A stretch of DNA of 64,000 nt from Elioraea tepida (GCF_019203965.1 NZ_CP076448.1:3277282-3341281); one strand, 5' to 3'; counted from the first letter of the stretch, positions 21,386 through 61,289 are shown. Notes: a model not told the origin generated them from the letters alone. Made by a program: numbers and translations.

Positions 21386-21389
21386 GGCG

Positions 21390-30197: not shown

Positions 30198-31027
30198 TCC
30201 CGCGCTCGGAGATCCTCGCCCGTCTGCGTGCGAAGGTCGCTCGCGGGGAGGCGATCATCGGCGGCGGCGCCGGCACGGGGCTGTCCGCCAAGTGCGAGGA
30301 GGCGGGCGGCATCGATCTCATCGTGAGCTACAACTCCGGCCGCTACCGCATGGCAGGTCGCGGCTCACTTGTCGGCTTGCTCGCCTATGGCGACGCCAAT
30401 GCCATCGTGCTCGAGATGGCGTCTGAGGTCCTGCCGGTGGTGAAGCGCACGCCGGTGCTTGCCGGCGTGAACGGAACCGATCCGTTCCGGCGGATGGATG
30501 TGTTCCTCGACGAGGTCAAGCGCCTCGGCTTCTCGGGCGTTCAGATCTTCCCCACGGTCGGCATCATCGACGGACGTTTCCGACGCAACCTCGAGGAGAC
30601 GGGCATGTCATAAGGCCTCGAGGTGGACATGATCGCCAAGGCGCATGCGCGTGACTTGCTGACGACTCCTTATGTGTTCAACGCGGGCGAGGCGGAGGCC
30701 ATGGCGCGCGCAGGCGCCGACATCATCGTCTGCCATTTCGGCCTGACGACAGGGGGGACGATCGGCGCGGAGACGGCACTCACCCTCGAGTGCCCCGCGC
30801 TGCTCGATGCCTGGGGCGAGGCGGCGCTGCGCGTGAACCCGGAGGTGCTGATCCTCGCCCATGGCGGCCCCGTGGGCGAGCCTGAGGATGCCGCCTACCT
30901 GCTCGAGAAGAGCGCCCTGTGCCACGGCTTCTACGGTGCCTCGTCGATGGAGCGCCTGCCGACCGAGCGGGCCTTGACGGAACAGACGCGCGCCTTCACG
31001 CGGCTTCGCCTGCGCGGGGGACGGTGA
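30194..31027 (+). pseudogene. Phosphoenolpyruvate hydrolase-like TIM-barrel protein (usual partner of UPF0261) with in-frame TAA at 30611-30613
   Basis: ...[10 protein letters not shown][TAA]GLEVDMIAKAHARDLLTTPYVFNAGEAEAMARAGADIIVCHFGLTTGG... The stop sits where a Tyr codon is expected (TAY to TAA). Confidence 0.65.
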
Positions 31028-31057
31028 GACGGTCGGAGGAGTACGGAGCATGATGCC

Positions 31058-33374
31058 ATGGTGAGCGGAGCCTTCATCGGCGAGCTGATCCTCTGGATCA
31101 TCGTCGCCGTCATCGTCATCGCGGTCATCTACTGGGTGATGCAGTATCTCTACCGGCGCTCGATGAAGGAGGTGGCCTTCGTCCGCACCGGCTTCCTCGG
31201 TCAGAAAGTGGTGATTGACGGCGGCGCCTTCGTTTGGCCGATCATCCACGACATCACGCCCGTGAACATGAACACGCTGCCGCTGAGGCTCGAGCGCACG
31301 CGGCAGGACGCCCTGATCAGCAAAGACCGGACGCGGATCGACATGCAGGCGGAGTTCTACGTCCGCGTCCGGCCCGACAAGGAGGCGGTGGCGACCGCCG
31401 CCTCCACGCTCGGACGCCGCACCCTCGAGCCGGAGCGGCTGCACGCCCTGCTCGCCGGCAAGTTCGAGAGCGCTCTCCGGGCCGTCGCCGCCGAGATGAC
31501 GATGAGCGAGATGCACGAGCAGCGGGCGAAGTACGTCGCCCGCGTCCGTGACGTCGCGCAGGAGGATCTCGCGAAGAACGGGCTCGAGCTCGAGAGCGTG
31601 GCGATCATGGACATCGACCAGACACCGCTCGAGTACTTCAACCCGTCGAACCGCTTCGATGCCGAGGGCTTGACAGCGCTGATCCGCGACATCGAGGAGC
31701 GCCGCAAGCGTCGAAACGACATCGAACAGAGCTCGATGATCGCGATCCGCGCACGCAATCTCGAGGCCGAGCGAGAGGCGCTCGAGATCGAGCGGCAGAG
31801 CGAGGAGGCGAGGCTTGTGCAGGAGCGGGAGATCGAGTTCCGCCGGGCGCAGCAGCGCGCCGAGCTCGCCCGAGAGCGCGCCGCGCGCGAAACCGATGCC
31901 GAGCAGGCGCAGATCACCGCGCGCGAGGCGATCGAGCAGGTGCGCATCGTCCAGGAGCGGGCGATTGCCGAGGCGTGGATCGCCAAGGAGGAGGAGATCC
32001 AGCGCCGCGAGATCGTCCAGCGCAAGGCAGTCGAGGCAGAGGAGATCGCCGCGCGCGAGGCCTTGGAGAAGCCGAGGATCGCCGAGACCGCGGCGGTCAG
32101 CGAGACGCGGATCGCCGAGGACAGGCGGATCCGCGAGCTCGAGATCGAACGCACGCGGGCCATCGAGGGGGCCGAGATCGCGGCGCAGGAGGCCGTCGAG
32201 GCCGCCCGGATCGCGCGCGAGAAGGCGCTTGCGGCGGAGCGGATCGCCGCAGAGGTGATGACGCGGGAACGGGAGATTGCGCGCGACAAGGCGCTCGACG
32301 AGGCGCGCGTTGCGGCGCAGGAGGCCGTTCGCGCGCGCGAGATCTCGCGCGAGCGCGAGCTCGAGATGGCGGAGATCGCCCGCCGCAAGGCGGTCGAGGA
32401 GGCGGAGCAGGCGCGGATCGTCGCGCTTGCCGGGCGGCGCGCCGAAGCGGCCGCGGCCGAGGCCTCGGTGCGGCAGGCGCAGATCACGGCGCAGCGCGAG
32501 GTCGAGACGGCCGAGGTCGAGCGCGCGCGCGTGCCCGAGGCGGCACGGATCGAACGGAGGCGGTCGCTCGAGCAGCTCGAGATCGCCCGCATGCAGGCGC
32601 TGCGCGAGGCAGAGATCGAGAGCCGCGAGGACATCGAGCGGGCGCGCATTGCCTCCGAACGCGGGCTCGACGAGGTGCGGATCGGCCACGAGACGGAGCG
32701 CCGTTGGCTTGAGATCGAGCGCGAGCGGATCATCGAGACGGTGCAGCTCGAGAAGGCGATCGCGCTCGCGCGGAAGTCGCTCGAGGAGAGCGCGGCGAGG
32801 ATCGAGGCCGACCAGGCGCGGGCGCGCGGCCGAGGCGGAGGAGCGGAGCCGAACCGTTCGCGAAACGGAGATGGCCGCACGCCGTCAGAAGATCGACCTC
32901 CTGCTCGCCGAAAAGGCGGCCGCCGAGGTCAGGATCGCGGCTGAGGCGGAGAAGGTCAGGCGCGCCGTCGAGGCGGAGGCGCAGCGGCTGATGAACGAGG
33001 CTGAGAACGAGCTGACCGACATGGCGCGCGCCTCACTCTTCCGCCGCAAGCTGCTCGAGCATGTCGAGGGGATCGTCGCCGCCTCCGTCAAGCCGCTCGA
33101 GAAGATCCGCGAGATCAAGATCATGCAGCTCGACGGGCTCAACGGAGGCGGCGAGGGCCGAAGGGGCAGCCCGACCGACGAGGTGATCACCTCGGCGCTC
33201 CGCTATCGGGTGCAGGCGCCGCTGATCGATGGGCTGCTCTCCGACATCGGCATCGAGGGCGGCAACCTCGCCAAGCAAGGCGGGCTGATCCGCGAGGCGG
33301 CTGACATGCAGAGGATCGCGAACGAGGCGCGCAAATCGAGGCCGAAGCCGGAAGGCGGCGAGGGGAAGCGCTAG
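31058..33374 (+). pseudogene. Flotillin/SPFH (YqiK-like) protein with a very long Glu/Ala/Arg coiled-coil region; frameshift near 32820-32835
   Basis: N-terminal TM plus band-7 domain (VRTGFLGQKVVIDGGAFVWPIIHDI). About 400 aa of EAExIAxRE heptad-like repeats follow. The C-terminal flotillin tail (MAARRQKIDLLLAEKAAAEV...MQLDGLNGG) is in a different frame. Confidence 0.7.
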
Positions 33375-33377
33375 GCC

Positions 33378-33815
33378 ATGCCGCGCGTTTACGTCTCCTC
33401 GGTGATCGACGCCCCGGCCGCCAAGGTGGGGGAGCGGATCCGTGACTTCAATGCGCTTCCGCGCTGGCATCCACGGATCCGCGACAGCCGGATCGAGAAC
33501 GGCGAGCCCTCGGACAGGGTGGGCTGCGGGCGCGACTTCCACCTCCAGAATGGCGACAGGATCCGCGAACGCCTGCTCGGCCTTTCCGACGACGACATGT
33601 TCTGCACCTACGCGATCCTCGAAAGCCCGATGCCGCTGACGGACTATGTCGCGACCATCCGCCTCAAGCCGATCACCGATGGCGATCGCACCTTCGCGGA
33701 ATGGACGGCAGAGTTCGAGTGCGCGCCGGAGGCGGCGGCGGAGCTGCTCGCCGGGATCGGGCAGAACGTGTTCCAGGCGGGCTTCGACGCCCTGAAGCGG
33801 CAGCTGGCGGGCTGA
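33378..33815 (+). CDS. SRPBCC-superfamily ligand-binding protein (CoxG/polyketide-cyclase-like)
   Basis: 145-aa ORF paralogous to the next gene. It sits upstream of a cox-like M/S/L/D/E cluster, where CoxG-type SRPBCC genes typically occur. Confidence 0.7.
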   Translation: MPRVYVSSVIDAPAAKVGERIRDFNALPRWHPRIRDSRIENGEPSDRVGCGRDFHLQNGDRIRERLLGLSDDDMFCTYAILESPMPLTDYVATIRLKPITDGDRTFAEWTAEFECAPEAAAELLAGIGQNVFQAGFDALKRQLAG

Positions 33816-33819
33816 GGCG

Positions 33820-34268
33820 ATGCCGAGAGTGATCCGCAGCACGGTGATCGACTGGCCGGTCGAGGAGGTGTGGGCTGTGCTGCGCGACTTCAACGGGCAT
33901 GATCGCTGGCACCCGATCGTCGCCGACAGCGTGATCGAGCGCGGTCAGCCCGCCGACAAGGTGGGCTGCGTGCGGTGGTTTCACCTGCGCGACGGTTCCG
34001 AATTACGGGAGCTTTTGCTGACGCTGTCTGATGCCGACATGGCCTTCTCCTACTGCCTCCTTGAGACGCCGGTGCCGCTGCTCAACTAGGTCGCGCATGT
34101 ACGCCTCGCACCGGTGACGGACGGGAACCGCACCTTCTGGCACTGGGAGAGCCGGTTAGACACGCCTCGAGGACGCGAGCGTGAGCTCGCCGATCTCGTC
34201 GGCCGAGAGGTCTACGAGGCACCTTTCGCCGCATTGCGCGAGCATCTCATCACAGGGGCGGCGACATG
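33820..34268 (+). pseudogene. SRPBCC-superfamily paralog with in-frame TAG at 34087-34089
   Basis: MPRVIRSTVIDWPVEEVWAVLRDFNGHDRWHP...PVPLLN[TAG]VAHVRLAPVTDGNRTFWHWESR... Alignment to the upstream paralog (..PLTDYVATIRLKPITDGDRTF..) places a Tyr at the stop position. Confidence 0.65.
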
Positions 34269-35071
34269 AGCACCGTTGTCGAGACCCATCCGACGGTCGC
34301 CGAGGCCGCGCGCGCGCTCGCATCAGGCGAGGCGCTCTATCTCGGCGGCGGTACGCTCGCGATGCGTGCTGCCAATGCTGGCGAGGCGCCGCGTCGCCTT
34401 ATTCGGAGCACCGACCGCGCGCTGCGCGAGATCGTCTCCTCGGGAGATGTCGTGCGCATCGGTGCTGGGGTGACAATGGCACAGATCCTCGCCAACCGAG
34501 AGCTCGCGTTCCTGCACGAGGCGGCGCACCAGGTCGGCGGGCCGCAGGTTCGGGTGATGGGCACGGTGGGCGGCAATCTGTTTGCGCACCACCCCTATGG
34601 CGACCTTGCAGTGGCGCCGCTTGCGCTCGGCGCGCGGGTGGTAATGGCGAGGTCATCCGGCGCGCGGCCGCTTGCCGATCTCTTGCGTGACCGTTCCCGC
34701 GCTGGGCTTGTTGCGCAGATCGACTGTCCGCGCCCGCGTGATCCGCGCAGCTTCGGGTTCCTGAAGGTGTCGCGCGTTCATCCGCGCGGTGCGTCGATCA
34801 TCTCGGTCCCGCCCATCTTCCGCGCGAGGGCGGTCGCATCAGGGGGGCGCGTGTCGCCTATGGGGCGATGGGGGCGGCTCCGCTGCAGGCGGCTGCGGTG
34901 GAACGTGCCCTTGAGGGACAGGCGCTCGAGCCGGCGACGATCGAGCGCGCGGTTCAGGTGGCGGTGCAGGGGATCGATCCGCCGAGCTGTGCGATCGCCT
35001 CCTCCAGGTACCGGCGCGAGGTCGCCGGCATGCATCTCCGTCGTCTGCTCGAGAGCATGGGGCGGGGCTGA
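34266..35071 (+). pseudogene. CoxM-like FAD-binding medium subunit of a molybdenum hydroxylase; frameshift near 34806-34815
   Basis: The FAD-binding N-part (ALYLGGGTLAMRAAN...VMGTVGGNLF) is in frame 0. The C-part (GGRIRGARVAYGAMGAAPLQAAAVERALEGQ...MHLRRLLESMG) is in frame 2. Confidence 0.7.
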
Positions 35072-35544
35072 TGCTGAGGAAGCCTGTCACCTTTACGCTA
35101 AACGGCGCGGCGCAAGCGGCGTTCACCGAGGACGGCCAGAACCTGCTCGACCTTCTGCGCCGCGGTGTCGGAGACCTCACCCCGAAGTATGGCTGCGGCC
35201 AGGGAGGCTGCAGTGCCTGCACGGTGCTGATCGACGGCGAGCCGCATCTCTCCTGCCTCGTGCTCGCAGAGACGGTTGAGGGACGGCGGATTGAGACGGC
35301 AGCGGGGCTCGCGGGGGCCAGCCTGCATTCGCTCCAGGAGGCATTCATGGACCATTTCGCCGCGCAATGTGGCTATTGCACGCCCGGCATGCTGATGGCA
35401 GCGAAGGCGCTGCTCGACCGCAACCCTCGCCCGAGCCGTGCCGAGGTGGTCGAGGCGATCTCGGGCAATCTCTGCCGCTGCACCGGCTACGAACCCATTA
35501 TCGAGGCGATCCTTTCGGTCGCGGAGGGGGGAGGACGGCGATGA
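35071..35544 (+). CDS. CoxS-like [2Fe-2S] small subunit of a molybdenum hydroxylase
   Basis: 157 aa with both cluster motifs: CGQGGCSACTV and CGYCTPGM...CRCTGY. Intact. Confidence 0.85.
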   Translation: MLRKPVTFTLNGAAQAAFTEDGQNLLDLLRRGVGDLTPKYGCGQGGCSACTVLIDGEPHLSCLVLAETVEGRRIETAAGLAGASLHSLQEAFMDHFAAQCGYCTPGMLMAAKALLDRNPRPSRAEVVEAISGNLCRCTGYEPIIEAILSVAEGGGRR

Positions 35545-38279
35545 GCGAGTCGATGATCGAATTCCGCAAGGAGTTCTTCGCCGACGAGCGCGACGACAGG
35601 CTGAATGAGATCGGCCGCCCGACGCGGCGTCAGGACATCCTCGGCCATGTGACGGGGCGTTCGCCCTTTTACGACGATCACCTGTTCCAGGGGCTGTTGC
35701 ACATGCGCTGCGCGCGCTCGCCCCATCACGCTGCGCGGATTCGGCGGATCGACACCTCGGAGGCGGAACGGAGCGCGGGCGTGGTGCGCGTGCTCACCGA
35801 CCGTGACGTGCCGCCCAACCTCAACACGCTCCTCTCCCTGCTTGATTTCGGCACCGATGACGAGCCGGTGCTCGGGACCGACCGCGTGCGCTACCAGGGC
35901 GAGCCGGTGGCGGCGGTGATCGCCGAGAGCGAGGCGGCGGCGCGCGAAGCCGCGGCAAAGGTACGCGTCGAGTGGGAGGTTCTGCCGCACGTGCTCGATG
36001 TCGAGGAGGCGATCCGCCCCGGTGCTCCAGTGGTGCTCGACATCTATCCGGGCAACAAGTTCATCTATCACGGGAAGAACGACCACCAGAAGCTCCGCTA
36101 CGGCGACGTGGACGCGGCGTTGAAGGGGGCCGACCTCGTGGTCGAAGGCCGCTACCAGATGTCGCCGATCGAGGTGGCGCCGATCGAGACCTGCGGCGCC
36201 ATCGCCGCGCCCGAGACCAACGATCGGTTCGTCTGCTACACCTCGACGCAGGCGCTGTTCTTCTCGCTCGCGACCACCTCGAAGCTCTTGCGCGTTCCCT
36301 CGAGCCGCCGGCATTTCCTTTGCGGAACGGAGGGCAGCGGGTTCGGCGGCAAGGTGGACTCCGTCCATGAGCCGCTCGCGGTGCTCGGCGCGATGGTGAC
36401 GGGGCGGCCCGTCAAGTTCTTGTGGGACCGCGAGGAGGAGATGCAGGTGGGCGGTCCGCGCGGCGCGGAGCGGTGGTACATCACCGACGGGGTGATGCGT
36501 GACGGGAGGATCGTCGCCCGCCGCTTCATCGGCTACTTCGACAGCGGTGCCGACACGCGGCTTTCTTCTTACGCGATCATCAAGGCGGTCGGGCACCTTC
36601 GGCGTCCGTACACGATCCCGAACGTCTACGCTGACGTCTATTGCGTCTTCACCAACCGAATGCCCGCGACCGCGATGCGCGGCTTCGGAATCACGGGCGT
36701 GGACTTCGCGATCGAGGCGCATATGGACAAGGTGGCGGAGGCGGTCGGGATGAACCCGATCGACCTGCGAATGCTTAACGCCTATCGCGACGGCGACATG
36801 AAGGCCCACCGGTGCGTCGCCAAGAATTGCGCGCTGATCGAGTGCTGCCAGGTGGTGCCGGAGAAGGCCGGCGTGCAGCACAGCAACAGCTCGCGCACCG
36901 CCTCGTCGCGCACCGGCGGAGGCGGGGAGCGCGGCCGGCTTGCGGCGCACACGGCGCTCGACGAGAAGGGCAAGGTCGAGGGAGTCGCGAGCGGAAGCGA
37001 CGCGCGCAAGACGGCCTCTGGGCACGGACGCGCGGCCGACCGCCGCGAGCCGTCGCGCGTCGTTCCGGCGCCGCGCCGAGAGGAGCCGGTCATGCCAATG
37101 GCCGCGCTTACAGCTCCGAGCCCTGCACCGTCCCCTGCGACGCTTCCGCCGCGGCCTCCGCCGCAACCGCCAGCGGGTGCTCCGCCCGCGCCCGGCGTAC
37201 CGCCGCGGTCGGGCCCGATCCGCTTCTCCTCCCTCTCCGGCTTCAGGAGGCACTGATGGCGCGTCACCGCGGCCGCGGCTTCGCCGCGGTTAACTATCCG
37301 ATCGCGATGAACCTCGGCGGCGATCCATCCCAGGCGCTCGTGCACGCGAATCCCGACGGCAAGTTCACCGTCACTCTCTCCTCGATCGATCTCGGCCAGG
37401 GCATGAAGTCGGTGACGCGTCAGATTGCCGCCGAAACGCTCGGCGTCCCTGTCGAGGATATCTACGTCGACACGGCCGACAGCGACACCGGCCCGCACTG
37501 CATGGGCTCCTTCGCCTCGCGCGGCACGCACTGTGTCGGCAACGCTGTGATCCAGGCGGCACTGGAGGCGAGGGCAGTGATGCTCGAGGCGGCCGCGGAG
37601 GAGCTCGAGGTCGATCCCGCCGACCTCGTGACGGACGGCTGCGGCAACATCCATGTTCGCGGTGCTCCCTCACGCTCGATCACCACGATGGCGGCGTGCC
37701 AAGCGGCCCAGTTCCGGCAGGGGGCGGACGGTCTCGGGCAGGGGGATCTTCCTGATCCCGCTTTCGGAGGTGGACCCCGAGAGGGGCGAGATGACGCCGG
37801 TGTCATGTTTCGCACATGCGGCGATGATCGTCGAGGTGGAGGTCGACGACAAGACGGGCGAGGTCGCCGTGATCGACATGAAGTCGGCCTACGAGGTGGG
37901 GAGGGCGCTGAACCCGAAGCTTGTCGAGCAGCAGCTTCGCGGTGGCGCGTGGATGGGCATGAGCCATGCCGCCTGGGAAACGACGGAACCCTACTATCCG
38001 GATCCGTCGCACCGGCCGGTTGACTTCCTGGGCTACCTGATGCCGGGGCCGGGGGATCTCGCGCCGCACCACATCTCGATGCTGGAGCGCTCAGCGCCGG
38101 ACGGGCCCTATGGCGGCAAGGGGCCGGGAGAGATGTGCGCCAAACTCGTTCTGCCCGCGGTGGTGAACGCGATCTATGACGCCGTTGGCGTTCGGATCGA
38201 TGAGCTTCCGGTCACACCCGAGAAGGTGCTACGTGGCCTTCGCGCTCAAGGCGGGGCGCGGCCGCGCAAGCGCCTCTGA
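35541..38279 (+). pseudogene. CoxL/xanthine-dehydrogenase-family molybdopterin large subunit, split at 37254-37258 (TGATG) and frameshifted near 37738-37745
   Basis: The N-part (MSESMIEF...) runs to a Pro/Ala-rich tail ending at TGA 37256. A second part starts at the overlapping ATG at 37255 (MARHRGRGFAAVNYPIAMNLGG...DTADSDTGPHCMGSFASRGT). A third segment (GIFLIPLSEVDPERGEMTP...GPYGGKGPGE) is in another frame, due to an extra base in gggcaggggg. Confidence 0.7.
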
Positions 38280-38282
38280 ACG

Positions 38283-39164
38283 ATGCCCATCCGCCGCAGC
38301 ATCGCCGGGCTCAACGGACCGGATGCGGTCGCGCGCGCGATGCGCGACGCCCAGTACATCGCCGACGACGGGCTCGCGACCGCCGCCTAACTTGCCCTTG
38401 CTCTCGGCAAGCCGCTCCTGCTCGAAGGCGCGCCAGGTGTGGGGAAGACGGAAGCGGCGAAGGCGCTCGCCTCCGTGCTCGGGAGGGAGCTGATCCGGCT
38501 GCAGTGCTACGAGGGGATTGACGCGTCCGCGGCTCTTTACGAATGGAAGTTCCCGCGCCAGATGCTCGCGATTCGCCAGGCGGGCGACGCGTACGTGAAC
38601 CTCTACGCTGACGAGTATCCGATCGCCCGCCCGCTTCTTCTCGCGCTTCAGGAGCCGCGGCAGAGGCTTCTCCTGTTCGACGAGATCGACAGGGCCGACC
38701 GCGAGTTCGAGGCCTTCCTGCTCGAATTCCTCTCCGACTTCACGATCTCGATTCCCGAGCGCGGGACCATCCGCGCCGCCGAGCCGCCCGTGGTGGTGCT
38801 GACCTCGAACCGGACGCGCGAGCTCCACGAGGCGTTGCGCTGGCGCTGCGTGTACCCCTGGATCGACTACACGGATCCGGCGCTCGAGACCGAGATCGTG
38901 ATGATGCGGGCGTCCACAGTCGCGCGCGCGACGGCCGAGCGCGTGGTCGCCGCCGTCAATCGGCTGCGTGCCGAGCCGCTCGCGAAGCCCCCCGGCGTGG
39001 CCGAGACTGTCGAGTGGGCGGAGGCCGCCACACTTCTTGCCGCCCAAGGGACACCTTGGCCGCGCGCCTTCGCCCGCGCGATCGGCGTGGCGCTGAAGGA
39101 TCAGGAGCACCTCTCCTTCCTCGCGTCACGGCTCGATGCCCTGATCACCGAGGCCGTCGCATGA
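38283..39164 (+). pseudogene. coxD: CoxD-like MoxR AAA+ ATPase with in-frame TAA at 38388-38390
   Basis: MPIRRSIAGLNGPDAVARAMRDAQYIADDGLATAA[TAA]LALALGKPLLLEGAPGVGKTEAAKALA... Walker A is intact downstream. The stop replaces the conserved Tyr of the A(A/L)YLAL motif. Confidence 0.7.
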
Positions 39165-40263
39165 TGCTTCCGCGGGCGCTGGCGCCGTTTCTCGCTTTTC
39201 CTCAAGCGCTTCGCGAGGCGGGGTTCGCGGCATCGCCAATGCAGACGGAGGGGTTCATCGCCGCCGTCGGGCTGCTCGGCCCCCGCGCGCTCGGCGACGT
39301 GCGGCGCGCCGCGCACGCCCTGTTCGGCCCTGAGCCTGAGCGCCGGGCGGGGTTCGACGAGGTGTTCGACCGTGTCTTCCTTGGCCGTTTCATCGCCGCA
39401 GCGGTCTCCGGAGAGGCGGAAGATCTCCCGCCGGCCTTCGATGCTGCGGGCTTCGAGCTCCTCTCCGACGGGGGGGAGATCGAGGAAACAGGCGCGCAGG
39501 CCACGCGGGCCGAGCGGCGGTCGCGCCGGGAATTCAGTGGGGGCCGCACCGACGATACCGTGCGCCGGCTGAGGCGCACGGCGGCACGTGCTCTGCCGCG
39601 CCGCAAGGCGCGACGGCTCGAGCGAGTAGCGGCGGTATCGCCGATCCGCGCCGCACTTTCCGGCTGATGATTCGCCGCGATGGCGAACTGACCCAGCTGC
39701 CCACGCGTCGCCGACAGATGAGGCAGCGGCGCGTGCTTCTGCTCATCGATGTCTCCGGCTCGATGAAGACGCTGACGGAGGGAACACTCCGGCTGGCGCA
39801 TGCTCTCGTACAGGGGGCGGAGCGTGTCGAGGCCTTCACGCTGGGCACGCGGCTTACCCAGATCACCCGCGCGCTTTCGCATCGCGAAGCGGATGCCGCC
39901 CTCGCCCGTGCCTCGGGCCTGGTGGCGGACTGGGACGACGGAACGCGTCTTGGCGAGGCGCTCGCCGTGTTCCTCTCCGTACCGCGTTTTGCCTCCTTCG
40001 CGCGCGGGGCGCTCGTGATCGTCGTCTCGGACGGGCTCGAGCGCGGCGGGCCAGAAGCCCTCGTTTCGGCGATGGCGCGGCTGCGACGGCTCGCCTGGGG
40101 CGTGCTGTGGCTGTCGCCGCTCGCCGCCGATCCGGCGTACCGGCCGGAGACGACGGCGATGCGGGCAATCCTGCCCATGCTCGATCGTCTCGGCAGCAGT
40201 GCGAGCGTGGAGGCGATTGCCGATGAGGTGCTCGGCTACGCCCGCAACAGGGGGCGCCGATGA
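39161..40263 (+). pseudogene. coxE: CoxE-like VWA-domain protein; frameshift near 39590-39615
   Basis: The N-part (MMLPRALAPFLAFPQALREAGFAAS...) ends at TGA 39667. The VWA part (RRVLLLIDVSGSM...VIVVSDGLERG) is in another frame whose upstream reading (..RASSGIADPRRTFRL) is continuous with it. Confidence 0.65.
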
Positions 40264-41138
40264 CGGTCGATGCGCATTTCCACATCTGGCGCCGTGACGA
40301 CCTTCCTTGGCTGTCGGGGCCGATGCAGCCGAGGATCTTCGGCCCCTACGAGCCGAACCGGCGCGACTACCTGATCAAGGAATATCTGCTCGACATCGCG
40401 GGGCAGGGAGTCGAGGCGGCGGTCTGCATCCAGGCGAACTGGCCGGCCGGAAGGGCCGAGGAGGAGGTCGCCTGGGTCTCCTCGGAGGCGGAGCGAACGG
40501 GCTGGCCGCAGGCCATCGTCGGCTCTGGCGATTTGACGCGCGAGGGGGCACGTGACGCCGTGGCTTCGCTCGCCAGAAACCGCCGTCTGCGCGGCATACG
40601 CCAGCAGCTGAATTGGCACGAGAACCCGCTCTACCGTTTCGCCGCCCGCCCCGATCTCTGCCTCGATCCGGTGCTGCAGCGGAACGTTGCCTCTCTCGGC
40701 GAGCGCGGACTCGTGTTCGAGCTGCAGGTGTTCACGCCGCAGATGGAGGGTGCTGCCGCGCTCGCCGATGCCGCGCCTCTGACCACGCTCGTGCTGCAGC
40801 ATGCGGGCATGCCTGAGGGTCTCTCTGAGGAGGGCATGGATCGCTAGCGCCGCGGCATGGCGGAGCTTGCGCGGCGGCCGAACGTGGTTGCGAAGCTCTC
40901 GGGCCTCGGCACCTTCCTGCGCCGGCTCGATCGTGACCATGTGGCTCGGATCACGGCGGAGACGGTCAAGCTGTTCGGGCCGGAGCGCTGCCTGTTCGGC
41001 TCGAACTTCCCGATCGAGAAGCTCTGGACGGACTATGCGGCGCTCATCGCCGCGCATCGTGACGCAGCGCGGCCGCTCGGTGATGGCGCGATGCGCGCGA
41101 TCTTCAACGACACGGCACGCCGGGTCTACCGGCTCTGA
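40260..41138 (+). pseudogene. Amidohydrolase-2 family metal-dependent hydrolase with in-frame TAG at 40845-40847
   Basis: MTVDAHFHIW...LSEEGMDR[TAG]RRGMAELARRPNVVAKLSGLGT... The stop sits at a Trp-expected position (TGG to TAG). ATGA overlap with coxE. Confidence 0.65.
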
Positions 41139-41151
41139 GGGAGAGGGTGTC

Positions 41152-42000: not shown

Positions 42001-42016
42001 TCGGAGGCGAGAGGCG

Positions 42017-43570
42017 ATGGCACGTACGGCACTCGACGCTGGATTCGAGCGGCTAATCGATCCCCATGCCCCGGTGCGGCAGATCTGCAGCGGCTTCATC
42101 TTCACCGAAGGCCCGGTTTGGTATCCGCAGGAACAGGCGCTCTACTTCTCCGACATGCCGGGAGATGTGCGGCGGCGGTGGGACCGCCACGGCGTGCGCG
42201 AAGTGATGCGGCCCTCGAACAAAGCGAACGGGCTCACTTTCGACGCCGCCCTGAACCTGCTCGCCTGCGAGCATGCGACGAGTGCGGTGGCGCGCTTTCG
42301 GCCCGACGGAAGGCAGGAGGTTCTGGCGACGCATTTCGAGGGCCGGGAGCTGAACAGGCCGAACGACCTCTGCGTGCACTCCTCGGGGGCGATCTACTTC
42401 ACCGATCCGTGGTACGGCAGGATGCCACATTACGGCGTAGAACGGCCGCGGCAGCTCGGCTTCCAGGGCGTCTATCGGCTTGCCCCGAACCACATCCCCG
42501 GCGCCGAGCCGCAGCTTCTGGTCGAGCGCTATCTGTTCACGCAGCCGAACGGGCTCTGCTTCTCGCCCTGCGAGCGTCTTCCTTACGTGAACGACACGGA
42601 GCAGGCGAACATCCGTGTGTTCGAGGTGGCCGAGGACTGATCGCTCCGGAATGGACGGGTCTTCGCCTCCGGCATTCGCGAGAGCCTGAACCCGGGCGTT
42701 CCGGACGGGATGAAATGTGACGCGGAGGGCAATGTCTGGGTCACGGGCCCCGGAGGGCTATGGGTGTTCCGGCCTGACGGGAAACATATCGGCCGCGTGT
42801 CCATTCCCGAACCGGCGGCGAACCTCGCCTGGGGCGGCGAAGACTGGAGGACGCTGTTCGTGTGCGCCTCCACCTCGATCTATGCGGTCGAGACGAGGGT
42901 GGGGCCGCGCAACGAGCCGTTCATGCGCGCGGCCGACTCGGCGCGTGCGCCGCGCGCGTCCGAGTCGTTGCGTCTCGACGCGCGGCGCTGCGCTCTGATC
43001 ATCCAGGACATGCAGAACGACGTGGTGATGGAGGGCGGCGCCTTCGCCTCCACAGGCTCCGCCCAGCATTGCCGCGAGCAGAACGCGATCGCCAACATCG
43101 CCCGCCTTGCGGAACGGTGCCGCGCCTTCGGCGTTCCGGTGATCCATGTCTGGTTCGTCGTCCCGCCAGGCGGCAAGGGCATGACGCTGAACGCGCCGCT
43201 GTTCGAGGGGGTGGTGGATGCCAACGCGATGGTGCGCGGCACCTGGGGCGCGGCGCCCGTACCCGGGCTCGAGCCGAGGCCGGGTGACCACGTCGTCGAG
43301 AAAAACCGCATGTCGGCCTGGGAAGGCACGATGCTCGAGACGATCCTCAAGGCGGAAGGCCGCGACGTGATCATCGAGACGGGTGCCTGGACGAACATGT
43401 CGATCGAGCACACGGCGCGCACAGGGGCCGACAAGGGCTATGTTATGGTGATCCCGGAGGATGCCTGCTCGACGATGAACGCCGATTGGCACCGTGCCTC
43501 GATCAACTATGCGATGCAGAGTGTCGCGCTTGTGACGACCACGGATGCCTCGATCGCGGCTCTGGGCTGA
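42017..43570 (+). pseudogene. SMP-30/gluconolactonase/LRE-like domain fused in frame to an isochorismatase-family hydrolase; in-frame TGA at 42638-42640
   Basis: The SMP-30 part (FTEGPVWYP...CVHSSGAIYFTDPWYG...VAED[TGA]SLRNGRVFASG...PDGMKCDAEGNVWVTGPGGLWVF) runs without a stop into an isochorismatase part (ALIIQDMQNDVV...VIIETGAWTNMSIEHTAR...VIPEDAC). The TGA sits at a Gly-expected position. Confidence 0.6.
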
Positions 43571-45336: not shown

Positions 45337-45588
45337 CCGCGTCTGGTGCCGTTCCTGCTGTCGCGCGTCAACGCAGGCGGCATCCGCGCCGGCAGGGCGT
45401 GTTCGCTCCTCGCGCGGCGGTTGCTGCAGCGCCACAATCCCGCCCCAACCACGTCGTGAAGCCGCCCACGAGGACGGAGAGACTGCGCGCGCTGGTGATC
45501 CGAACCACTCCTGGGTGCCGCGGCGAGACCCTCGCAACGGCCGCGTGCGCCCGCAAGGCAGGGACAGCGGGTCCAGCGGGAAAAGAGG

Positions 45589-46287: not shown

Positions 46288-46339
46288 GCGGTCATCGACG
46301 CCGCGTCTCGCCGGCTGCATCGCCTCGGCGGCGGGGCTA

Positions 46340-50929: not shown

Positions 50930-51801
50930 CCCTCTCGATCGCCATCGGCATCGCCACGCGTGGCCGGCCCGCTATCCTCGCCGAGACGATCGCCGAGCTC
51001 TCACGCCAGACTCGCGCGCCCGAGGCGATCCTCGTCTGCCATGTGGATGAGGAGGATGTCGGCGATCTGCCGGCGCGCCGGCCCGACATTCGTTTCCTCA
51101 AGGCAGAGGCCGGGCTGCCGAAACAGCGCAACGCCATCCTCGAGGCAGCGCGCGAGGATGTGGTGCTGTTCCTCGACGACGACTTCCTCGCCGCCCCGTC
51201 CTACCTCGAGGTGTTGGGGCGCGTGCTCGAGGCGCGACCGGACTGCGTCGTCGCGACCGGGACGGTGATCGCCGACGGCGCCAAGGGGCCCGGGATCTCG
51301 GTCGAGGAGGGGCGGGCGATCCTCGCCGCCGACATCCCGCCACCCGATCTGCTCGCCGCCGCGCCGCACTTCAACGGCTATGGTTGCAACATGGCGTTCC
51401 GGATGGCGCCGGTGCGCGCGCACCGGATCCGCGTCGACGAAGCGCTGCCGCTCTATGCGTGGTACGAGGACATCGATGTGACGCGACGTCTTGCTGCCTA
51501 TGGAACGATCCTGCGGCTTGCCGGCGCCCGCGGTGTGCATCTCGGCGCGAAGGCGGCGCGCACGCCTGGGCTTCGCCTCGGCTACAGCCAGGTCGCGAAC
51601 CCGATCTATCTCGCGCGGAAGGGGAGCTTTCCCTGGAGCCATGCGATCCCCTCGGCCGCACGCCACTGCGCGATCAACCTCGTGCGCTCGATCGCGCCCG
51701 AGCCTCATGTCGACCGCTGGGGGCGGTTCCGCGGCAACATGCTCGCGCTGTGGGACCTCCTGCGCGGCCGGGCGCACCCGGGCCGTATCCTCTCGCTCTG
51801 A
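50926..51801 (+). CDS. Glycosyltransferase family 2
   Basis: SIAIGIATRGRP... plus FLDDDF motif. ATGA overlap with the previous GT2. Confidence 0.75.
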   Translation: MTLSIAIGIATRGRPAILAETIAELSRQTRAPEAILVCHVDEEDVGDLPARRPDIRFLKAEAGLPKQRNAILEAAREDVVLFLDDDFLAAPSYLEVLGRVLEARPDCVVATGTVIADGAKGPGISVEEGRAILAADIPPPDLLAAAPHFNGYGCNMAFRMAPVRAHRIRVDEALPLYAWYEDIDVTRRLAAYGTILRLAGARGVHLGAKAARTPGLRLGYSQVANPIYLARKGSFPWSHAIPSAARHCAINLVRSIAPEPHVDRWGRFRGNMLALWDLLRGRAHPGRILSL

Positions 51802-51806
51802 TCGCC

Positions 51807-52604
51807 TCAGGGAGCGGGGAAGGGCGCGTCTGTCCGCCCCATCATCCAGTAGGCGACGAGCCCGATCCACTCGCGCAACGCTCCCTCGACCTGGGCGAGG
51901 CGCTCGGGGAAGGGAGCGTCGTAGAGGGCTGCGAAGCTGCGTCCCGTCCTGTAGTTGACGGGCCAGGGGACGACGGGCCACCCGGCGGCGCGGAACACGC
52001 CGACGGCGCGCGGCATCTTGCTTGCCGAGGTGACAAGCAGCCACGTCTCGCCCGGTTTCGGATTGATGAGCTCCTTGGTCAGCACAGCGTTCTGGTGCGT
52101 GTTTCGGCTCTTGTCCTCGTAAGTCACGCGCGCCTGATCGAGGCCCATCGCGGTCCAGAGCGCGCGAGCGACATCCGCCTCGGTCAGCCCCCCATGCACG
52201 AGCGATCCCTGGCCGCCGGTGAAGACGATCCGCGCCTGCGGGTAGCGCCGGGCGAGGGCGATCGCCTCCGTCATCCGCTCGGCCGCGCCGTTGAGAGCGG
52301 GGATCCCGCGCGCCTCGGTCAGGTTCTGATCCACCGCGCCGCCGAGCACGATCACGCCATCGACGTGCGTGGGTGGCTCGACGGGGCGGGAAAACCGTTC
52401 CTCAAGCGGGATGAGCAGGAGCGGGGCCACGGGGGTTGCGAGCACCACCACGAAGAAGCCGAGGCCGAAGGCGAGCGGCCAGCGGCCCCAGCGCCGCCCG
52501 CGCCACCACGCGACGAGGCCGACAAGGCACAGCAGAAGCGCGAAGGTGCCGGGGCGCAGCACGAACCAGAGCAGCTTCGAGAGCACATAGCTCAGCGTCG
52601 TCAT
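51807..52604 (-). CDS. DUF218 (YdcF/ElyC-like) domain protein
   Basis: Minus-strand ORF starting at ATG 52604: MTTLSYVLSKLLWFVLRPG..., N-terminal TM, then a VLGG...TGG DUF218 core. ATGA overlap with the upstream GT-C gene. Confidence 0.7.
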   Translation of the reverse strand: MTTLSYVLSKLLWFVLRPGTFALLLCLVGLVAWWRGRRWGRWPLAFGLGFFVVVLATPVAPLLLIPLEERFSRPVEPPTHVDGVIVLGGAVDQNLTEARGIPALNGAAERMTEAIALARRYPQARIVFTGGQGSLVHGGLTEADVARALWTAMGLDQARVTYEDKSRNTHQNAVLTKELINPKPGETWLLVTSASKMPRAVGVFRAAGWPVVPWPVNYRTGRSFAALYDAPFPERLAQVEGALREWIGLVAYWMMGRTDAPFPAP

Positions 52605-54112
52605 CGCGGATCCCTGAGACGGTAGATCTCGACCGGCCCGTTCGCCTCGAGAACACGTGCGGCAAACTCGTAGTGGCGCCCGAGCGTCGCCTCGATCGCG
52701 GCCCGGGCAGGCGGGCGCATGGCCGTCCACCAGCCGCGATCGACCACGATCGCCGCAGGGCGCGCGGCAAGCACGCGGTCGAGCTCCGCATCGGCGTCGA
52801 TGCCGGTCACCCCGCTGTACCAACCGGCGAGGTGTTGGGGAAAGGCGAAGCGGGTCGGCACCGCCATGCCCGAAAGCACATAGACCACCGGATGGTAGTT
52901 GGCGATGTAGACGGTGGAGCCTTCCGGGACAATCTCGCGCAGTGACTGCGCGACCAGCCGGATAGGGTCGGCGCGCCGGAAGCCTGGGCCGGTCTCGATC
53001 CGGCGCGCGGCATCGCCGGTCCAGGTGTCGGCGGCGATGAAGCCGAGCGCGGCGGCAAGCAGGAGGCCCGGACGCGCCGGCAGGATTCGCCGCGCCAGAG
53101 CCCATGCGCCGGCGGCGGCAAGCAGCGACAGCGGCGGCTGCCAGATCAGGAAGTAGTGATTGAAGAACTGCCCGGGAGCGGCGATGGCGAGCGTGGTGGC
53201 CACGAGCCAGCCGAGGCCGAACCCCGCGACGCGCCGCACCTCGCCGCCGGGCAGCGCCGTGGCGGCGGCGAGCACGATCGGCCAGATGAGGAACAGGGTA
53301 ACAGCCACCAGCATCCAGGCGCCGTCACGGAACGTGATCGCGGCGCCGAGATAGCGGAAGGGGGCGACGAACCAGACATCGAGGAAGATGTCGAAGGCGC
53401 CCTGCGCCGCGTAGGCCAACCCCACGAGCAGGGTCGGCGCGCCGCAGGCGGCGGTATAGAGCGCCGCGTGTCGGAGCAGGGCAGGCGGGGCGAGCAGTCG
53501 TTTCGTCAGAGCAGGTCCGACCATCACCGCGAACGCGAAGCAGCCCTCGAAGAACGCAACCGACTTGATCACGAGGGCGATGCCGACGAGCAGGCCCGCA
53601 AGCGCGATCCGCACGGGCCTTGGGGGCTGCAGATCGTCGAGCGTACGCACCCCCTCGCGGGCCGCGAGCGCAAGCGCGGCGACGACGAAGGGCGAGAACA
53701 GCACCTCCGTGTTGGTGGCGAGGCCGCCGAAATTCGTTGTCAGAGCGATCGAGAGCAGGCCAGCGGCATAGGCCGGCACGGCGGGCAGCCCGAGCACGCG
53801 AGCAAGCGCGAAGAGCGCGGTTCCGGCCACTGCCACGGCAACTGCGCCGAGCAGCCGCACGGCGAAGATCACGGGAAGGGGCAGCATCAGCGCGAGCGCG
53901 ACGAGCGCCGGCGCGCCGATCGGGTGCATGTCCCATACACCGATCAGCGGCCAGGTGCCGGCAAGCCAGTCCCGCGCCTGGAGGATGTAGAGCCCCTCGT
54001 CGGTGTCGATCACCGCCGGAACGAAGGAGAGCGAGCGCAGAGCAAGCGAGGCGGCGAGCATTGAGAGAGCGAGGCCGACTGGGCTCGTGAGAGCGGGAAC
54101 GAGCGGGCTCAC
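52601..54112 (-). CDS. GT-C fold glycosyltransferase (ArnT/PMT_2-like)
   Basis: Polytopic N-terminal region with a DTDEGLYI-type motif (VIDTDEGLYILQARDWLAG) and a soluble C-terminal domain. Proposed GTG start at 54112, overlapping the stop of the upstream gene (GTGA). ATG MLAAS is the alternative. Confidence 0.6.
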   Translation of the reverse strand: MSPLVPALTSPVGLALSMLAASLALRSLSFVPAVIDTDEGLYILQARDWLAGTWPLIGVWDMHPIGAPALVALALMLPLPVIFAVRLLGAVAVAVAGTALFALARVLGLPAVPAYAAGLLSIALTTNFGGLATNTEVLFSPFVVAALALAAREGVRTLDDLQPPRPVRIALAGLLVGIALVIKSVAFFEGCFAFAVMVGPALTKRLLAPPALLRHAALYTAACGAPTLLVGLAYAAQGAFDIFLDVWFVAPFRYLGAAITFRDGAWMLVAVTLFLIWPIVLAAATALPGGEVRRVAGFGLGWLVATTLAIAAPGQFFNHYFLIWQPPLSLLAAAGAWALARRILPARPGLLLAAALGFIAADTWTGDAARRIETGPGFRRADPIRLVAQSLREIVPEGSTVYIANYHPVVYVLSGMAVPTRFAFPQHLAGWYSGVTGIDADAELDRVLAARPAAIVVDRGWWTAMRPPARAAIEATLGRHYEFAARVLEANGPVEIYRLRDPR

Positions 54113-55845
54113 CGAACGCCCTCGGTGATGGTTCCCTCCGGCAGGTCCTCGAAGGGCGGGGCGAGCCGGCGCAGATGGGAGGGGATCGGGCGGTCGCCCC
54201 AGCCCGGGAGAAGAACGACGAGCCCGTCGATGAGCAGCATCGGGTCGCGCTCCCGGTCGCGTCCGAAATCGGCGCGCTTGAGCGTGTCGCGGTCGCGCAG
54301 GACATAGACCGTGCCGGGCTCGTGACGGCCGGAGAAGAGCTGCGCGGCGATCTTCTCTCGGAGCGCGGCGATCGCGCCCGGGTCGATCCGCGCCAGATAG
54401 ACGGCATCGGTCGTCATGCCGTGACGTATGGCGAAGCGCGCGGTGGATTCCCAGTGAAGCCCGCGGTCGGCCGCCGGCACCGCACGGATCCGCGTGTAGG
54501 CCTTGCCGATCTCGTCCCAGAACGGATCGGGCAGGCGCTCGGGCTGGATCCGCGGCTCCTTGATCACGAGCGATTCGTAGTGGCGGATCGAGGGCAAAAG
54601 ATCGACGAGCTGAACGGCGGCGAGTGCGGCAAAGAGAAGGGCGGCGAGCCGGGCACGGTTCGGCCCGAGCGCGCGCAGCGTCACGATCGCCGCCGAAGCG
54701 AGCAGGGCATAGGCGAGCGGCCAGGCGAAGCGGGTCGAGGCGCGCAGGATTCCGGCAAGCCTCAGCATCCAGGGCGGCGGCTCGAACAGGGTGATCCGCA
54801 CGCCGGCGATGGAGGGCATGTGCGTCATCGCGAACAGGATCAAGGCGATCAGAACGACCACAAGCGGCCAGCTGCGCATGAGCGCGGCACGGATCCCGAG
54901 GTCGCGCCGGAGACACACGGTCACGAGCCCGGCGGCGAGCAGCAGGATCCCCCCGAGGCCAAGATAGTCGCTGCCCGACTCGCCGTGGCGCAGGTCCGGG
55001 ATCGGCGGCAGGATCGATCCCCACAGGGTGCTGTCGAACCAGGCGAGCACGTTGAACCCGAGATCTCCGTAGCCCCAGGCCTCGAGACCGGCGCGCAGAA
55101 CGAAGAACCCGGCGGCCCAGAGCCCGGCCGCGCCGAGCGCGGGCACGAGCACGGCCTCGGCAGCACGCCCCAGGGCGGGGGCGGCGATGGTCCGACGCAG
55201 CCAGTCAGCTCCCCACAAGGCGCCGACCATGACGAGCAGGTAGGAATGCACGAGGCTCGTGGCGGAGACGAGCAAGGCCCAGGCCAGAGGGCGCCGCGCG
55301 CCGCGCCCCTCCGTGAAGCAGAGCAGGAGGGCTGCGAGTACCGTCCACTGCCCCGCGAGCGCGAGGTGGCCCGCCATGCGCATCAGCATCATCGGCTGCA
55401 GGGCGAACAGCGCCGAGGCACCGAGCAGCGCGAGCGTTCCGGCCGGGGTGATGCCGATGCCGGACAGCGCGGCGAGTCTGAGCCCGAGCACCGCCTGCGC
55501 CATGCCGCAGAAGAGGAGCCACATGCCCCAATACTGTTCGACTGTGACGAGGCTCCGGATCGCCTTCAGCGGGAGCGCGATGAGCGGGATGGTGTCGGCG
55601 TAGAAGATCGAACTCGACAGCTCGAGACCGTAGTTGGGGTTCAGCCCGGGCGGGATGTGCCAGGCGTCACGGCGGAACCAGCTCCAGCCGAGCCAGTACT
55701 GCACCGGGTCGGGCCCCATGGGGCCTGCGAGCATCCATCCCGTGGCGGTCGGCGACAGGACTCCCTCCCAGAACTCCCACGGTGTGGGGCCGAACGACAG
55801 CACCACCACCGCCGCACCGATAGCGGCCGCGGCGAGATGAGCCAT
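54109..55845 (-). CDS. Large polytopic membrane protein, paralog of 43714-45336
   Basis: Start proposed at MAHLAAAAIGAAVVVLSF. Shares the W-H-x-PP / ADxIPLxALxLK N-terminal block with the paralog. The track ORF extends to 56037. Confidence 0.55.
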   Translation of the reverse strand: MAHLAAAAIGAAVVVLSFGPTPWEFWEGVLSPTATGWMLAGPMGPDPVQYWLGWSWFRRDAWHIPPGLNPNYGLELSSSIFYADTIPLIALPLKAIRSLVTVEQYWGMWLLFCGMAQAVLGLRLAALSGIGITPAGTLALLGASALFALQPMMLMRMAGHLALAGQWTVLAALLLCFTEGRGARRPLAWALLVSATSLVHSYLLVMVGALWGADWLRRTIAAPALGRAAEAVLVPALGAAGLWAAGFFVLRAGLEAWGYGDLGFNVLAWFDSTLWGSILPPIPDLRHGESGSDYLGLGGILLLAAGLVTVCLRRDLGIRAALMRSWPLVVVLIALILFAMTHMPSIAGVRITLFEPPPWMLRLAGILRASTRFAWPLAYALLASAAIVTLRALGPNRARLAALLFAALAAVQLVDLLPSIRHYESLVIKEPRIQPERLPDPFWDEIGKAYTRIRAVPAADRGLHWESTARFAIRHGMTTDAVYLARIDPGAIAALREKIAAQLFSGRHEPGTVYVLRDRDTLKRADFGRDRERDPMLLIDGLVVLLPGWGDRPIPSHLRRLAPPFEDLPEGTITEGVR

Positions 55846-56002
55846 CAGGCCGGGGATCTGGGGGGAGCGGTCGGTGGTCACGCTGCGCGGTCGGCGGTGA
55901 GGCGAGCGGGTCGGCCAGGAGCGGGCGGGACCATGGCGGGCGATTGCGGCGCGGATCGGGCGGGACTGGGGTCCGAGACCGAGCTGTAGGGAGGGGCGGG
56001 TC

Positions 56003-57249
56003 ATGGCGCGCCGCGCCGCGTGGCGTTCGGGCGGCATCGAGTCGCGCTACGCTTGGGTCAGGCTCGCTGCCGCGCTCACGCTCTCCACGGTCGGCAGCGT
56101 CGGGATGTGGTCGGTCGTGGTGATCCTGCCGGCGGTGCAGGCGGAGTTCGGCACCGACCGCGCGAGCGCCTCGCTGCCCTAGACGCTCGTGATGCTCGGC
56201 TTCGTCGGCGGCAGCGTGATGATGGGCCGGCTTGCCGACCGCTTCGGCGTCATCGTGCCGGTGGTGACCGGCAGCCTTTCGCTCGGCGTCGGCTATACAG
56301 CGACGGCCGCCGCGCCGACCATGTGGGTGTTCGCACTCGCAAGCGGCGTGTTCATCGGCCTCTTCGGTGCCTCGGCTGTTTTCTCGCCGCTGGTGGCCGA
56401 CATCTCCCGCTGGTTCGACCGCAATCGCGGCATCGCGGTCGCGCTCTGCGCAAGCGGCAACTATCTCGCCGGAGCGGTCTGGCCGCCGGTCCTGCAGGCG
56501 CTGGTCGCGGGCGCAGGGTGGCGGACGGCGCAGCTCGTTGTCGGCGGGGTGTGCGTGGTTGCGATGCTTCCGCTTGCGCTCGTGCTGCGTCAGCCGGTGC
56601 CGGCTGAGGTTCCCCGCAAGGCCTCGGCTGCGGCGTCGCGCGAGCGGGCCGAGACGCGCCCGCTCGGCCTTGCGCCGAACACGCTCCAGGGGCTGCTCGT
56701 CGTTGCCGCGCTCGGATGTTGCGTTGCGATGTCGATGCCGCAGGTCCACATCGTCGCCTACTGCGTCGATCTCGGCTACGGGCCCGCGCGAGGAGCGGAG
56801 ATGCTCGCGCTGATGCTCGGCTTCGGCATTGTCAGCCGGCTCGCAAGCGGCGTCATCATGGACAGGATCGGCGGCCTCGCGACGCTGCTTTTCGGCTCGC
56901 TGCTTCAGGCGGTCGCGCTCGCGCTCTTCCTGCCGTTCGACGGGCTCACCGCCCTCTACATCGTGTCGGCGATCTTCGGCCTGTTCCAGGATGGACTCGT
57001 TCCGGCTTACGCCTTCATCGTGCGGGAATACTTCCCGGCCAGCGAGGCCGGAGACGGGTCGGGATCGCGATCTCGGCCACACTCGCCGGCATGGCGCTCG
57101 GGGGCTGGCTGTCGGGTGCGATCTTCGACCTCGCGGGCTCGTATCAAGCGGCCGTGCTCAACGGCCTTGCCTGGAATGCGATGAACGTGGCGATCGTCGC
57201 GTGGCTGCTCCGCCGGTCACTCGCCGAGCCACGGCTTGCGTCCGCCTGA
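56003..57249 (+). pseudogene. MFS transporter (oxalate/formate antiporter-like) with in-frame TAG at 56178-56180 and a frameshift near 57040-57050
   Basis: MARRAAWRSGGIESRYAWVRLAAALTLSTVGSVGMWSVVVILPAVQAEFGTDRASASLP[TAG]TLVMLGFVGG... The stop is at the conserved Tyr of the LPYTL motif. The C-terminus (RVGIAISATLAGMALGGWLSGAIFD...) is in another frame. Confidence 0.65.
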
Positions 57250-61288: not shown

Positions 61289-61289
61289 C

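Follow-up and report, generated by a model that had tools for sequence, protein, structure and literature searches.

The chromosome of Elioraea tepida contains a stretch of 64,000 nucleotides (GCF_019203965.1, NZ_CP076448.1:3277282-3341281; strain MS-P2T or a strain indistinguishable from it), which we call the window, in which five recognizable genes are interrupted by an in-frame TAG or TAA codon at the place of a conserved tyrosine. These codons raise the question of whether the organism decodes TAG and TAA as tyrosine or whether the genes have been inactivated. The data presented here make it probable (roughly 85%) that the stops are ordinary nonsense mutations in decaying pseudogenes and that they are not read as Tyr. 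This conclusion is drawn from the following observations: the lesions are confined to dispensable genes, the partners of the interrupted genes are frameshifted, the polymorphism is neutral, Trp, Gln and Pro codons were also hit, and the decay continued after the initial inactivation. The initial annotation of this DNA had already preferred ordinary mutation, and on these grounds its preference was upheld.

E. tepida comes from Mushroom Spring (Yellowstone) and is an anoxygenic phototroph that lives aerobically. Its genome has 70.6% G+C, and the size of this genome (3.37 Mb) compares with more than 4.3 Mb in E. tepidiphila and E. rosea (PMC8781829). The chromosome record comprises 3,367,643 bp, and across the window the G+C content is 68-72%.

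Sequence comparison

Ancestral codons were read from intact loci of sister species (contigs L082, L086-L088 and L098), which share ~80-87% nucleotide identity with the window. The conspecific set consisted of 14 contigs (L081, L083-L085, L163-L172; 98-99.7% nucleotide identity), which come from independent assemblies, mostly metagenomes, and syntenic loci of other alphaproteobacteria (~65-82% protein identity, tblastn) were used as distant comparison set. Nonsense codons were counted by walking codon by codon along the intact sister genes, and for the last binding-protein gene 120 homologues were aligned. Scans for in-frame stops guided by the G+C content of third codon positions were dropped in favor of this codon walk, since in 70% G+C DNA antisense frames mimic coding and made these scans too noisy.

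Stop codons at conserved tyrosine positions

Four nonsense codons had been assigned to conserved tyrosines by the initial annotation, and comparison with the intact sister genes confirmed the Tyr in each case. However, the stop in the MFS transporter gene starts at position 56180 rather than at 56178, and a fifth Tyr-to-stop codon at 62638 had not been listed (Table 1). At 30611, TAC is present in L086-L090 and TTC in L098. At 34087, TAC was found in all five covering relatives and Tyr in 18 of 19 homologues; as the annotation had stated, the intact adjacent SRPBCC paralogue (33378-33815) also has a Tyr at the matching position. The codon at 38388 reads TAT in 5/5 relatives, and in 81 more distant CoxD homologues the residue is Y (31), F (36), L (7) or H (7). 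TAC was found at 56180 in L082 and Tyr in 117 of 120 homologues, and the Tyr at 62638 is invariant (120/120). The stops listed by the initial annotation all lie inside full-length Pfam matches, and the families concerned are PEP_hydrolase, Polyketide_cyc2, AAA (MoxR/CoxD-type), Amidohydro_2, SGL plus Isochorismatase, and ABC_tran. The interrupted genes are pseudogenes in the sense that an in-frame stop lies within a conserved domain where the orthologues have a sense codon.

When the conspecific contigs were inspected, we found the TAA at 30611 also in L084 and L085, the TAG at 34087 in L083-L085, the TAA at 38388 in L083 and L084, and the TAG at 56180 in 11 of 11 contigs, so that these four stops are present in every overlapping conspecific contig. 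The fifth site is polymorphic in the population: six contigs (L163-L168) have TAC at 62638, and TAG is restricted to the window and L081. Since the Tyr stops are present in independent assemblies, they are not sequencing errors.

In the PEP_hydrolase, the second SRPBCC (SRPBCC2) and the coxD genes the Tyr stop is the sole lesion. The MFS gene, for which intact orthologues of 415 amino acids are available (P0001, L082), carries a second lesion, a 1-nt deletion at ~57054 that is common to all conspecifics. The stitched read-through of this gene matches a cluster of 25 truncated proteins of 330 amino acids, among them WP_235691936.1. RefSeq treats at least one pseudogene fragment as an ordinary protein: this entry is the MFS fragment itself (56192-57184). 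The open reading frame 56192-57181 of the window is 100% identical to it, and its last ~30 residues, past the ~57054 deletion, are out of frame.

History of the liv2 operon

The fifth Tyr stop lies in a liv-type/acyl-CoA-ligase operon (liv2; 57.6-63.7 kb, 57600-63705), which was called intact in L163, L165 and L167 with a 267-residue ATPase, a 602-residue ligase, two permeases and a 429-residue binding protein. The window and L081 have only the Tyr>TAG exchange at 62638 in common among the lesions of this operon. Later lesions of its own in the window are the TAG at 57908, the single-base deletions at 59485 and 62207 and the TGA at 63289. L081 has acquired a +1 insertion at 57888 and a TGG>TCG exchange at 63289, a position at which 114 of 120 homologues have Trp and L163-L167 have TGG. 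This pattern looks like a true knock-out followed by neutral decay. The independent later lesions in both strains argue against suppression of the TAG at 62638: efficient reading of this codon as Tyr would have kept liv2 under selection, but the operon was released, which makes suppression unlikely.

The livG-like gene of this operon was knocked out independently twice, by the nonsense codon at 57908 in the window strain and by the insertion at 57888 in L081. Altogether, liv2 of the window strain carries five lesions at an overall divergence of just ~0.6% from the conspecific contigs.

Loss of constraint in the 23.4-43.6 kb block

The block at 23.4-43.6 kb comprises a liv-like ABC transporter, UPF0261 and PEP_hydrolase genes, a flotillin-like gene, two SRPBCC genes, a coxMSL-coxD-VWA cluster, an amidohydrolase, an MBL-fold gene and the SGL/isochorismatase gene. 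Over 23.4-42.4 kb, substitutions between the window and conspecific contigs were distributed over codon positions 1:2:3 as 68:69:73, 51:47:43 and 47:40:40, and this even spread indicates neutral evolution. Purifying selection on the region is lost. For the 51-64 kb region the corresponding distribution was 20:26:49, and constraint is thus only partial there.

The metagenome strains carry frameshifts of their own that have no counterpart in the window (-1, -1, +1 and -5 in coxL1, others in coxM, coxL2, livH and livF), and polarisation with outgroups showed that indels arose on both lineages. Neutrality extends to block genes that still look intact (livH, SRPBCC1, coxS, coxL1 and the MBL-fold gene), the polymorphism counts per gene being too small for a gene-by-gene test. 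The indel:substitution ratio between strains in 23400-43600 is ~1:10. Divergence of the window from L083 and L084 is uneven, with ~2% over 31.8-38 kb and ~0.4% over 38.3-42.3 kb, and this suggests a recombination mosaic. A short, highly divergent and gap-rich stretch (31790-31950) was found in the coiled-coil (flotillin-like) gene.

The housekeeping genes of the window are intact. The ten of them that were checked at 1-17.6 kb (frr, uppS, cdsA, dxr, rseP, bamA, lpxD, fabZ, lpxA, lpxI) gave end-to-end matches to NCBIfam profiles, the phosphonate-uptake genes are uninterrupted open reading frames, the polysaccharide cluster was called intact in the conspecific contigs, and for the remaining core genes one or the other applies. 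If lesions were as dense in the intact genes as they are in the decaying blocks (0.8/kb), ~20 of them should be present there, but none was observed. The intact genes of the window contain ~140 Tyr codons and are free of in-frame TAG and TAA. The codon and Tyr totals are approximate, since the list of intact genes included one mis-framed open reading frame (14818-15956).

Other nonsense codons and frameshifts

Quantification of the nonsense codons in the window yielded a total of 13, which replace Tyr (5), Trp (2), Gln (2), Gly (1), Ser (1), Pro (1) and one unassigned residue. Frameshifts are about as numerous (~13), and both kinds of lesions all lie in accessory genes. The residues proposed by the initial annotation for the non-Tyr stops were correct in part. 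Trp (TGG) at 40845 and Gln (CAG) are ancestral, the latter codon being located at 57908 rather than at 57907. Of the two TGA codons tentatively ascribed to Gly or Arg, the one at 42638 replaces Gly, but the guess for 23735 found no support because this codon is the fourth of a signal peptide. The stops at 40845 and 23735 resemble four of the Tyr stops in that each conspecific contig covering them has the same codon.

Several of the affected genes carry additional lesions. The livM-like gene with the stop at 27136 has a +T frameshift at 26630, and three older frameshifts (~28380, ~29200, ~29937) were found in the LivF-UPF0261 fusion gene. In the cox cluster, coxM (~34810), coxL2 (37722) and the VWA gene (~39617) are frameshifted. 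The kinase remnant is frameshifted directly past its GTPA motif, and its TAG (23010-23008) replaces a residue that we take to be Gln from what is generally known of the Hanks-type kinase motif rather than from an alignment. In other strains we detected seven nonsense codons that are exclusive to them, and none of the seven (0/7) is located at a Tyr. They lie in L085 (~window 28836), in coxM of L083/L085, in coxL1 of L083-L085, in coxL1 of L084, in livK and livG of L085 and in the MFS gene of L081, and replace Trp, Glu, Arg, Cys, Gln, Cys and Trp.

In relatives (L088 4269-6551; L004 2-2014), a LivF-like ABC ATPase and a UPF0261-type domain are encoded by a single long open reading frame with the conserved linker PTRWSQPVPVEQIER, and the copy of the window extends over 27919-30194. 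The region 18485-23500 contains remnants of a type VI secretion system, namely a split VgrG gene followed by PAAR and FHA genes and by the broken Ser/Thr kinase on the minus strand. Among the strains sampled, the indels at 26630, 32825, 37722, 59485 and 62207 occur only in the window, and for some of them the site is a short homopolymer or CG repeat. They could represent genuine mutations of this isolate, but also consensus errors left in the PacBio/Canu assembly.

Table 1. Nonsense codons, frameshifts and the neutrally evolving block in the window
Feature	Position	Strand	Gene, context and distribution
TAA replacing Tyr (TAC)	30611-30613	+	PEP_hydrolase-like gene 30194-31027
TAG replacing Tyr (TAC)	34087-34089	+	second SRPBCC/Polyketide_cyc2 paralogue 33820-34269
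TAA replacing Tyr (TAT)	38388-38390	+	codon 36 of CoxD/MoxR-type AAA ATPase gene 38283-39164
TAG replacing Tyr (TAC)	56180-56182	+	MFS transporter gene ~56003-57251, context L-P-(stop)-T-L
TAG replacing Tyr (TAC)	62638-62640	+	branched-chain-type substrate-binding protein gene 62416-63705
TAG replacing Trp (TGG)	40845-40847	+	Amidohydro_2 gene 40260-41138; also in L084
TGA replacing Gly (GGA or GGC)	42638-42640	+	SGL/isochorismatase fusion gene 42017-43570; G in 11/11
TAG replacing Gln (CAG)	57908-57910	+	livG-like ABC ATPase gene; window strain only
TGA replacing Trp (TGG)	63289-63291	+	substrate-binding protein gene 62416-63705; window strain only
TGA replacing Ser (TCA)	27136-27138	+	near 3' end of livM-like gene; window only
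TAG replacing Pro (CCG, two changes)	28851-28853	+	conserved linker of LivF-UPF0261 fusion gene; window only
TGA at codon 4 of signal peptide	23735-23737	+	livK-like binding protein gene 23726-24997; also in L085; residue counted as unassigned
TAG in activation-loop motif (..ESSTMT(stop)AGTVLGTPA..)	23008-23010	-	Ser/Thr kinase remnant
Frameshifts	26630, ~28380, ~29200, ~29937, 32825, ~34810-34856, 37722, ~39617	+	23.4-43.6 kb block
Single-base deletions	59485, 62207	+	AMP-binding ligase (59485) and livM-like gene (62207); window only
VgrG frameshift	~19.45 kb		open reading frame pieces 18485-19501 and 19438-20484
Neutrally evolving block	23400-43600	+	~18 co-oriented genes; polymorphism even over codon positions

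Frequency of Tyr among the nonsense codons

As neutral reference we used the spectrum of 227 within-species substitutions in the decaying block, which were polarised with outgroups (C>T 96, T>C 34, C>G 34, C>A 28, T>G 24, T>A 11). The initial annotation had pointed to a predominance of C to A/G transversions; this holds for the stops it listed, but the background is dominated by transitions, above all C>T. Expected shares were calculated from the 8,263 codons of the intact orthologues in sister species, and the main sources of nonsense codons predicted in this way are Gln (28%), Trp (22%) and Glu (18%). For Tyr the expectation was 12.5-13.4% with the measured spectrum (12.5% when it was strand-resolved) and 19% with equal rates. 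Since Gln, Trp and Glu are the main sources predicted and Tyr would contribute only ~13%, the spectrum does not by itself predict an excess of Tyr.

Three observations weigh against ordinary decay as the complete explanation. Tyr accounts for 5 of the 13 nonsense codons, which corresponds to nominal P-values of 0.017-0.022 against the measured spectrum and of 0.08 against equal rates. Among the lesions present in at least two strains 5 of 9 are located at Tyr, in contrast to 0 of 9 singletons (Fisher P=0.03, with a split that was made post hoc). Finally, the window lacks any Glu>stop exchange, even though GAG>TAG is expected to be among the commonest paths. The excess of Tyr drops to P ~0.2 when ten possible source residues are corrected for, and pooling with the seven events of other strains (5/20) gave P = 0.1-0.3. 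Statistically, the excess is suggestive only, and it is most probably a chance fluctuation in a small sample. Apart from the split between shared and singleton lesions, nothing keeps a more interesting reading in play.

Two candidate causes of the excess were rejected. When the spectrum was resolved for the coding strand (G>T 20 vs C>A 8; G>C 17 vs C>G 17), there was no mutational asymmetry favoring TAC>TAA or TAC>TAG. A CTAG context, with C preceding 5 of 5 confirmed TAG codons, was not significant because C is the commonest third-position base.

Alternative explanations

According to the preferred reading, two accessory regions have dropped out of selective constraint, one at ~23.4-43.6 kb and the other consisting of the MFS gene and the liv-type/acyl-CoA-ligase operon (56-64 kb). 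Both are gathering frameshifts and nonsense substitutions, the two kinds being about equally frequent, with extra lesions that differ by strain. TAC or TAT is converted to TAG or TAA by one third-position transversion, and five of the window's 13 nonsense codons arose in this way. The stops would end translation and the genes would be dead; as judged from the sequences, read-through at the Tyr stops is probably absent.

Alternatively, UAG and UAA might be decoded as Tyr by a supF-like suppressor tRNA or by partial reassignment, and genes with only a Tyr>stop exchange would then still be functional. The five TAR codons (R, A or G) at conserved Tyr positions would fit this scenario, and the rarity of TAG and TAA as terminators (3 of 37 gene ends in the window; 34 TGA, 2 TAG, 1 TAA) would lower the cost of suppression. 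However, TGA dominates equally at the corresponding loci of sister species with intact genes (17 TGA:1 TAG in L082 and 13 TGA:1 TAG in L088), so that TAG and TAA ends are uncommon throughout this clade and there is no extra avoidance of them in E. tepida; moreover, TAA ends lpxD, and the TAG that ends livH2 is conserved in sister species. TAG also replaces Trp at 40845, Gln at 57908, probably Gln at 23010 and Pro at 28851, and in other strains it replaces Glu, Gln, Trp and Arg. The Tyr codons of the intact genes have remained free of TAR, the interrupted genes lie amid frameshifted operon partners and in a codon-position-neutral block, and liv2 decayed after its Tyr>TAG exchange. We found no tRNA genes in the window or in nine related loci, and the tRNA count of E. 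tepida (46) is the same in three of four compared relatives (PMC8781829). Suppression or reassignment is thus very unlikely, in agreement with the initial annotation, which had called a Tyr-inserting suppressor unsupported. A less efficient form of decoding would be natural leakiness, in which a near-cognate tRNA-Tyr misreads UAG and UAA by a wobble mismatch, so that traces of wild-type protein are made and Tyr>stop alleles spread more easily under weak selection. Such a filter is consistent with the Tyr stops being the older, shared lesions, with their role as sole lesion in three genes and with the order of events in liv2, where Tyr>TAG was the first hit. Nevertheless, we regard it as improbable: basal read-through is expected to be very low, and 1% of wild-type product should hardly differ in fitness from 1% of missense product. 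CAG>TAG and TGG>TGA should leak equally, but the old lesions show no enrichment of these exchanges. In addition, liv2 decayed fast in both descendant strains following its Tyr>TAG exchange, and the sample is small. The related proposal that the oldest population-shared stops are preferentially TAY>TAR (Y, C or T), owing to partial decoding of UAG/UAA as Tyr by near-cognate tRNA-Tyr or a suppressor with the help of rare TAG/TAA terminators (~8%), and that these alleles are leaky, appears quite improbable as well.

A mutational origin of the Tyr excess would be a context-dependent bias towards TAY>TAR transversions at the third position, for instance by oxidative damage of guanine on the opposite strand in an aerobic phototroph. 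All five events (5/5) are indeed pyrimidine-to-purine transversions that affect one and the same position of the codon, the polarised spectrum contains unusually many C>G exchanges (34/227, more than C>A), and four or five of the Tyr codons had C before them. However, the events belong to three transversion classes (C>G 3, C>A 1, T>A 1), the coding strand has no asymmetry favoring C>A or C>G, the measured spectrum is already built into the expected share of Tyr, and none of the nine recent singletons is located at Tyr. We give such a bias only a small chance. Errors of sequencing or assembly might be considered because the MS-P2T genome was assembled with Canu from PacBio Sequel reads (PMC8781829). 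Some of the features unique to the window (the indels at 26630, 37722, 59485 and 62207 and the nonsense substitutions at 27136, 28851, 57908 and 63289) could be consensus errors. For the stops in general this explanation is extremely unlikely: independently assembled contigs have the same codons at the five Tyr stops, at the Trp stop (40845) and at the TGA (23735), the conspecific contigs bear additional frameshifts of their own, and housekeeping genes are spared, as would not be expected of random errors. Recoding by selenocysteine or pyrrolysine was dropped without a dedicated test; TGA aligns to Gly, Trp and Ser, TAG to Tyr, Trp and Gln, and the genes are frameshifted.

Discussion

The locus is of little significance for recoding, since ordinary gene decay explains the stops without a suppressor. 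Should the bias towards Tyr extend over the whole genome, it would indicate that UAG and UAA are leaky specifically for Tyr in a bacterium, and this would be of real interest. What the locus offers under ordinary decay is a clean population-level case in which an initial knock-out was succeeded by decay that proceeded independently in sister strains. Recently inactivated accessory blocks, including transporters, a carbon monoxide dehydrogenase-like cluster and type VI secretion remnants, are carried by the type strain and by the natural population of E. tepida. Nonsense-mutated pseudogenes as such are already well known. A modest side result is that gene decay can be followed at the population level in a phototroph living freely in hot springs. 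We found no description of this in the literature, and our literature search also returned no description of pseudogenes or recoding in Elioraea and none of E. tepida as pseudogene-rich.

Tyr-inserting suppressors are known from Escherichia coli, where supF/tyrT reads amber codons (anticodon CUA) and has ochre derivatives (UUA). A supF-like tRNA would restore the wild-type residue at just such TAG and TAA codons as were found in E. tepida. In contrast to the supF case, however, such a tRNA is absent from the window and the related loci, and the E. tepida stops extend beyond Tyr positions, are present only in decaying genes and behave as knock-outs. Genetic codes in which UAA or both UAA and UAG (UAR) specify Tyr are those of flatworm mitochondria (NCBI table 14, TAA) and of Mesodinium nuclei (table 29, TAA and TAG). 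The TAA and TAG codons at conserved Tyr positions in E. tepida resemble these codes. However, under tables 14 and 29 the codons occur throughout essential genes and are unused as terminators, whereas in E. tepida TAA and TAG end the intact lpxD and livH2 genes and do not occur where intact genes have Tyr. We know of no bacterial code in which UAR specifies Tyr.

The closer parallel is with bacterial pseudogenes that result from relaxed selection or genome reduction, as in Mycobacterium leprae, Sodalis glossinidius and Burkholderia mallei. As in these cases, stops and frameshifts in E. tepida lie in recognizable genes with few lesions each, whole operons are decaying together, the lesions differ by strain, and housekeeping genes are spared. 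Unlike host-restricted bacteria, E. tepida is a free-living phototroph of hot-spring mats, and its gene decay can be seen at the population level in metagenomes.

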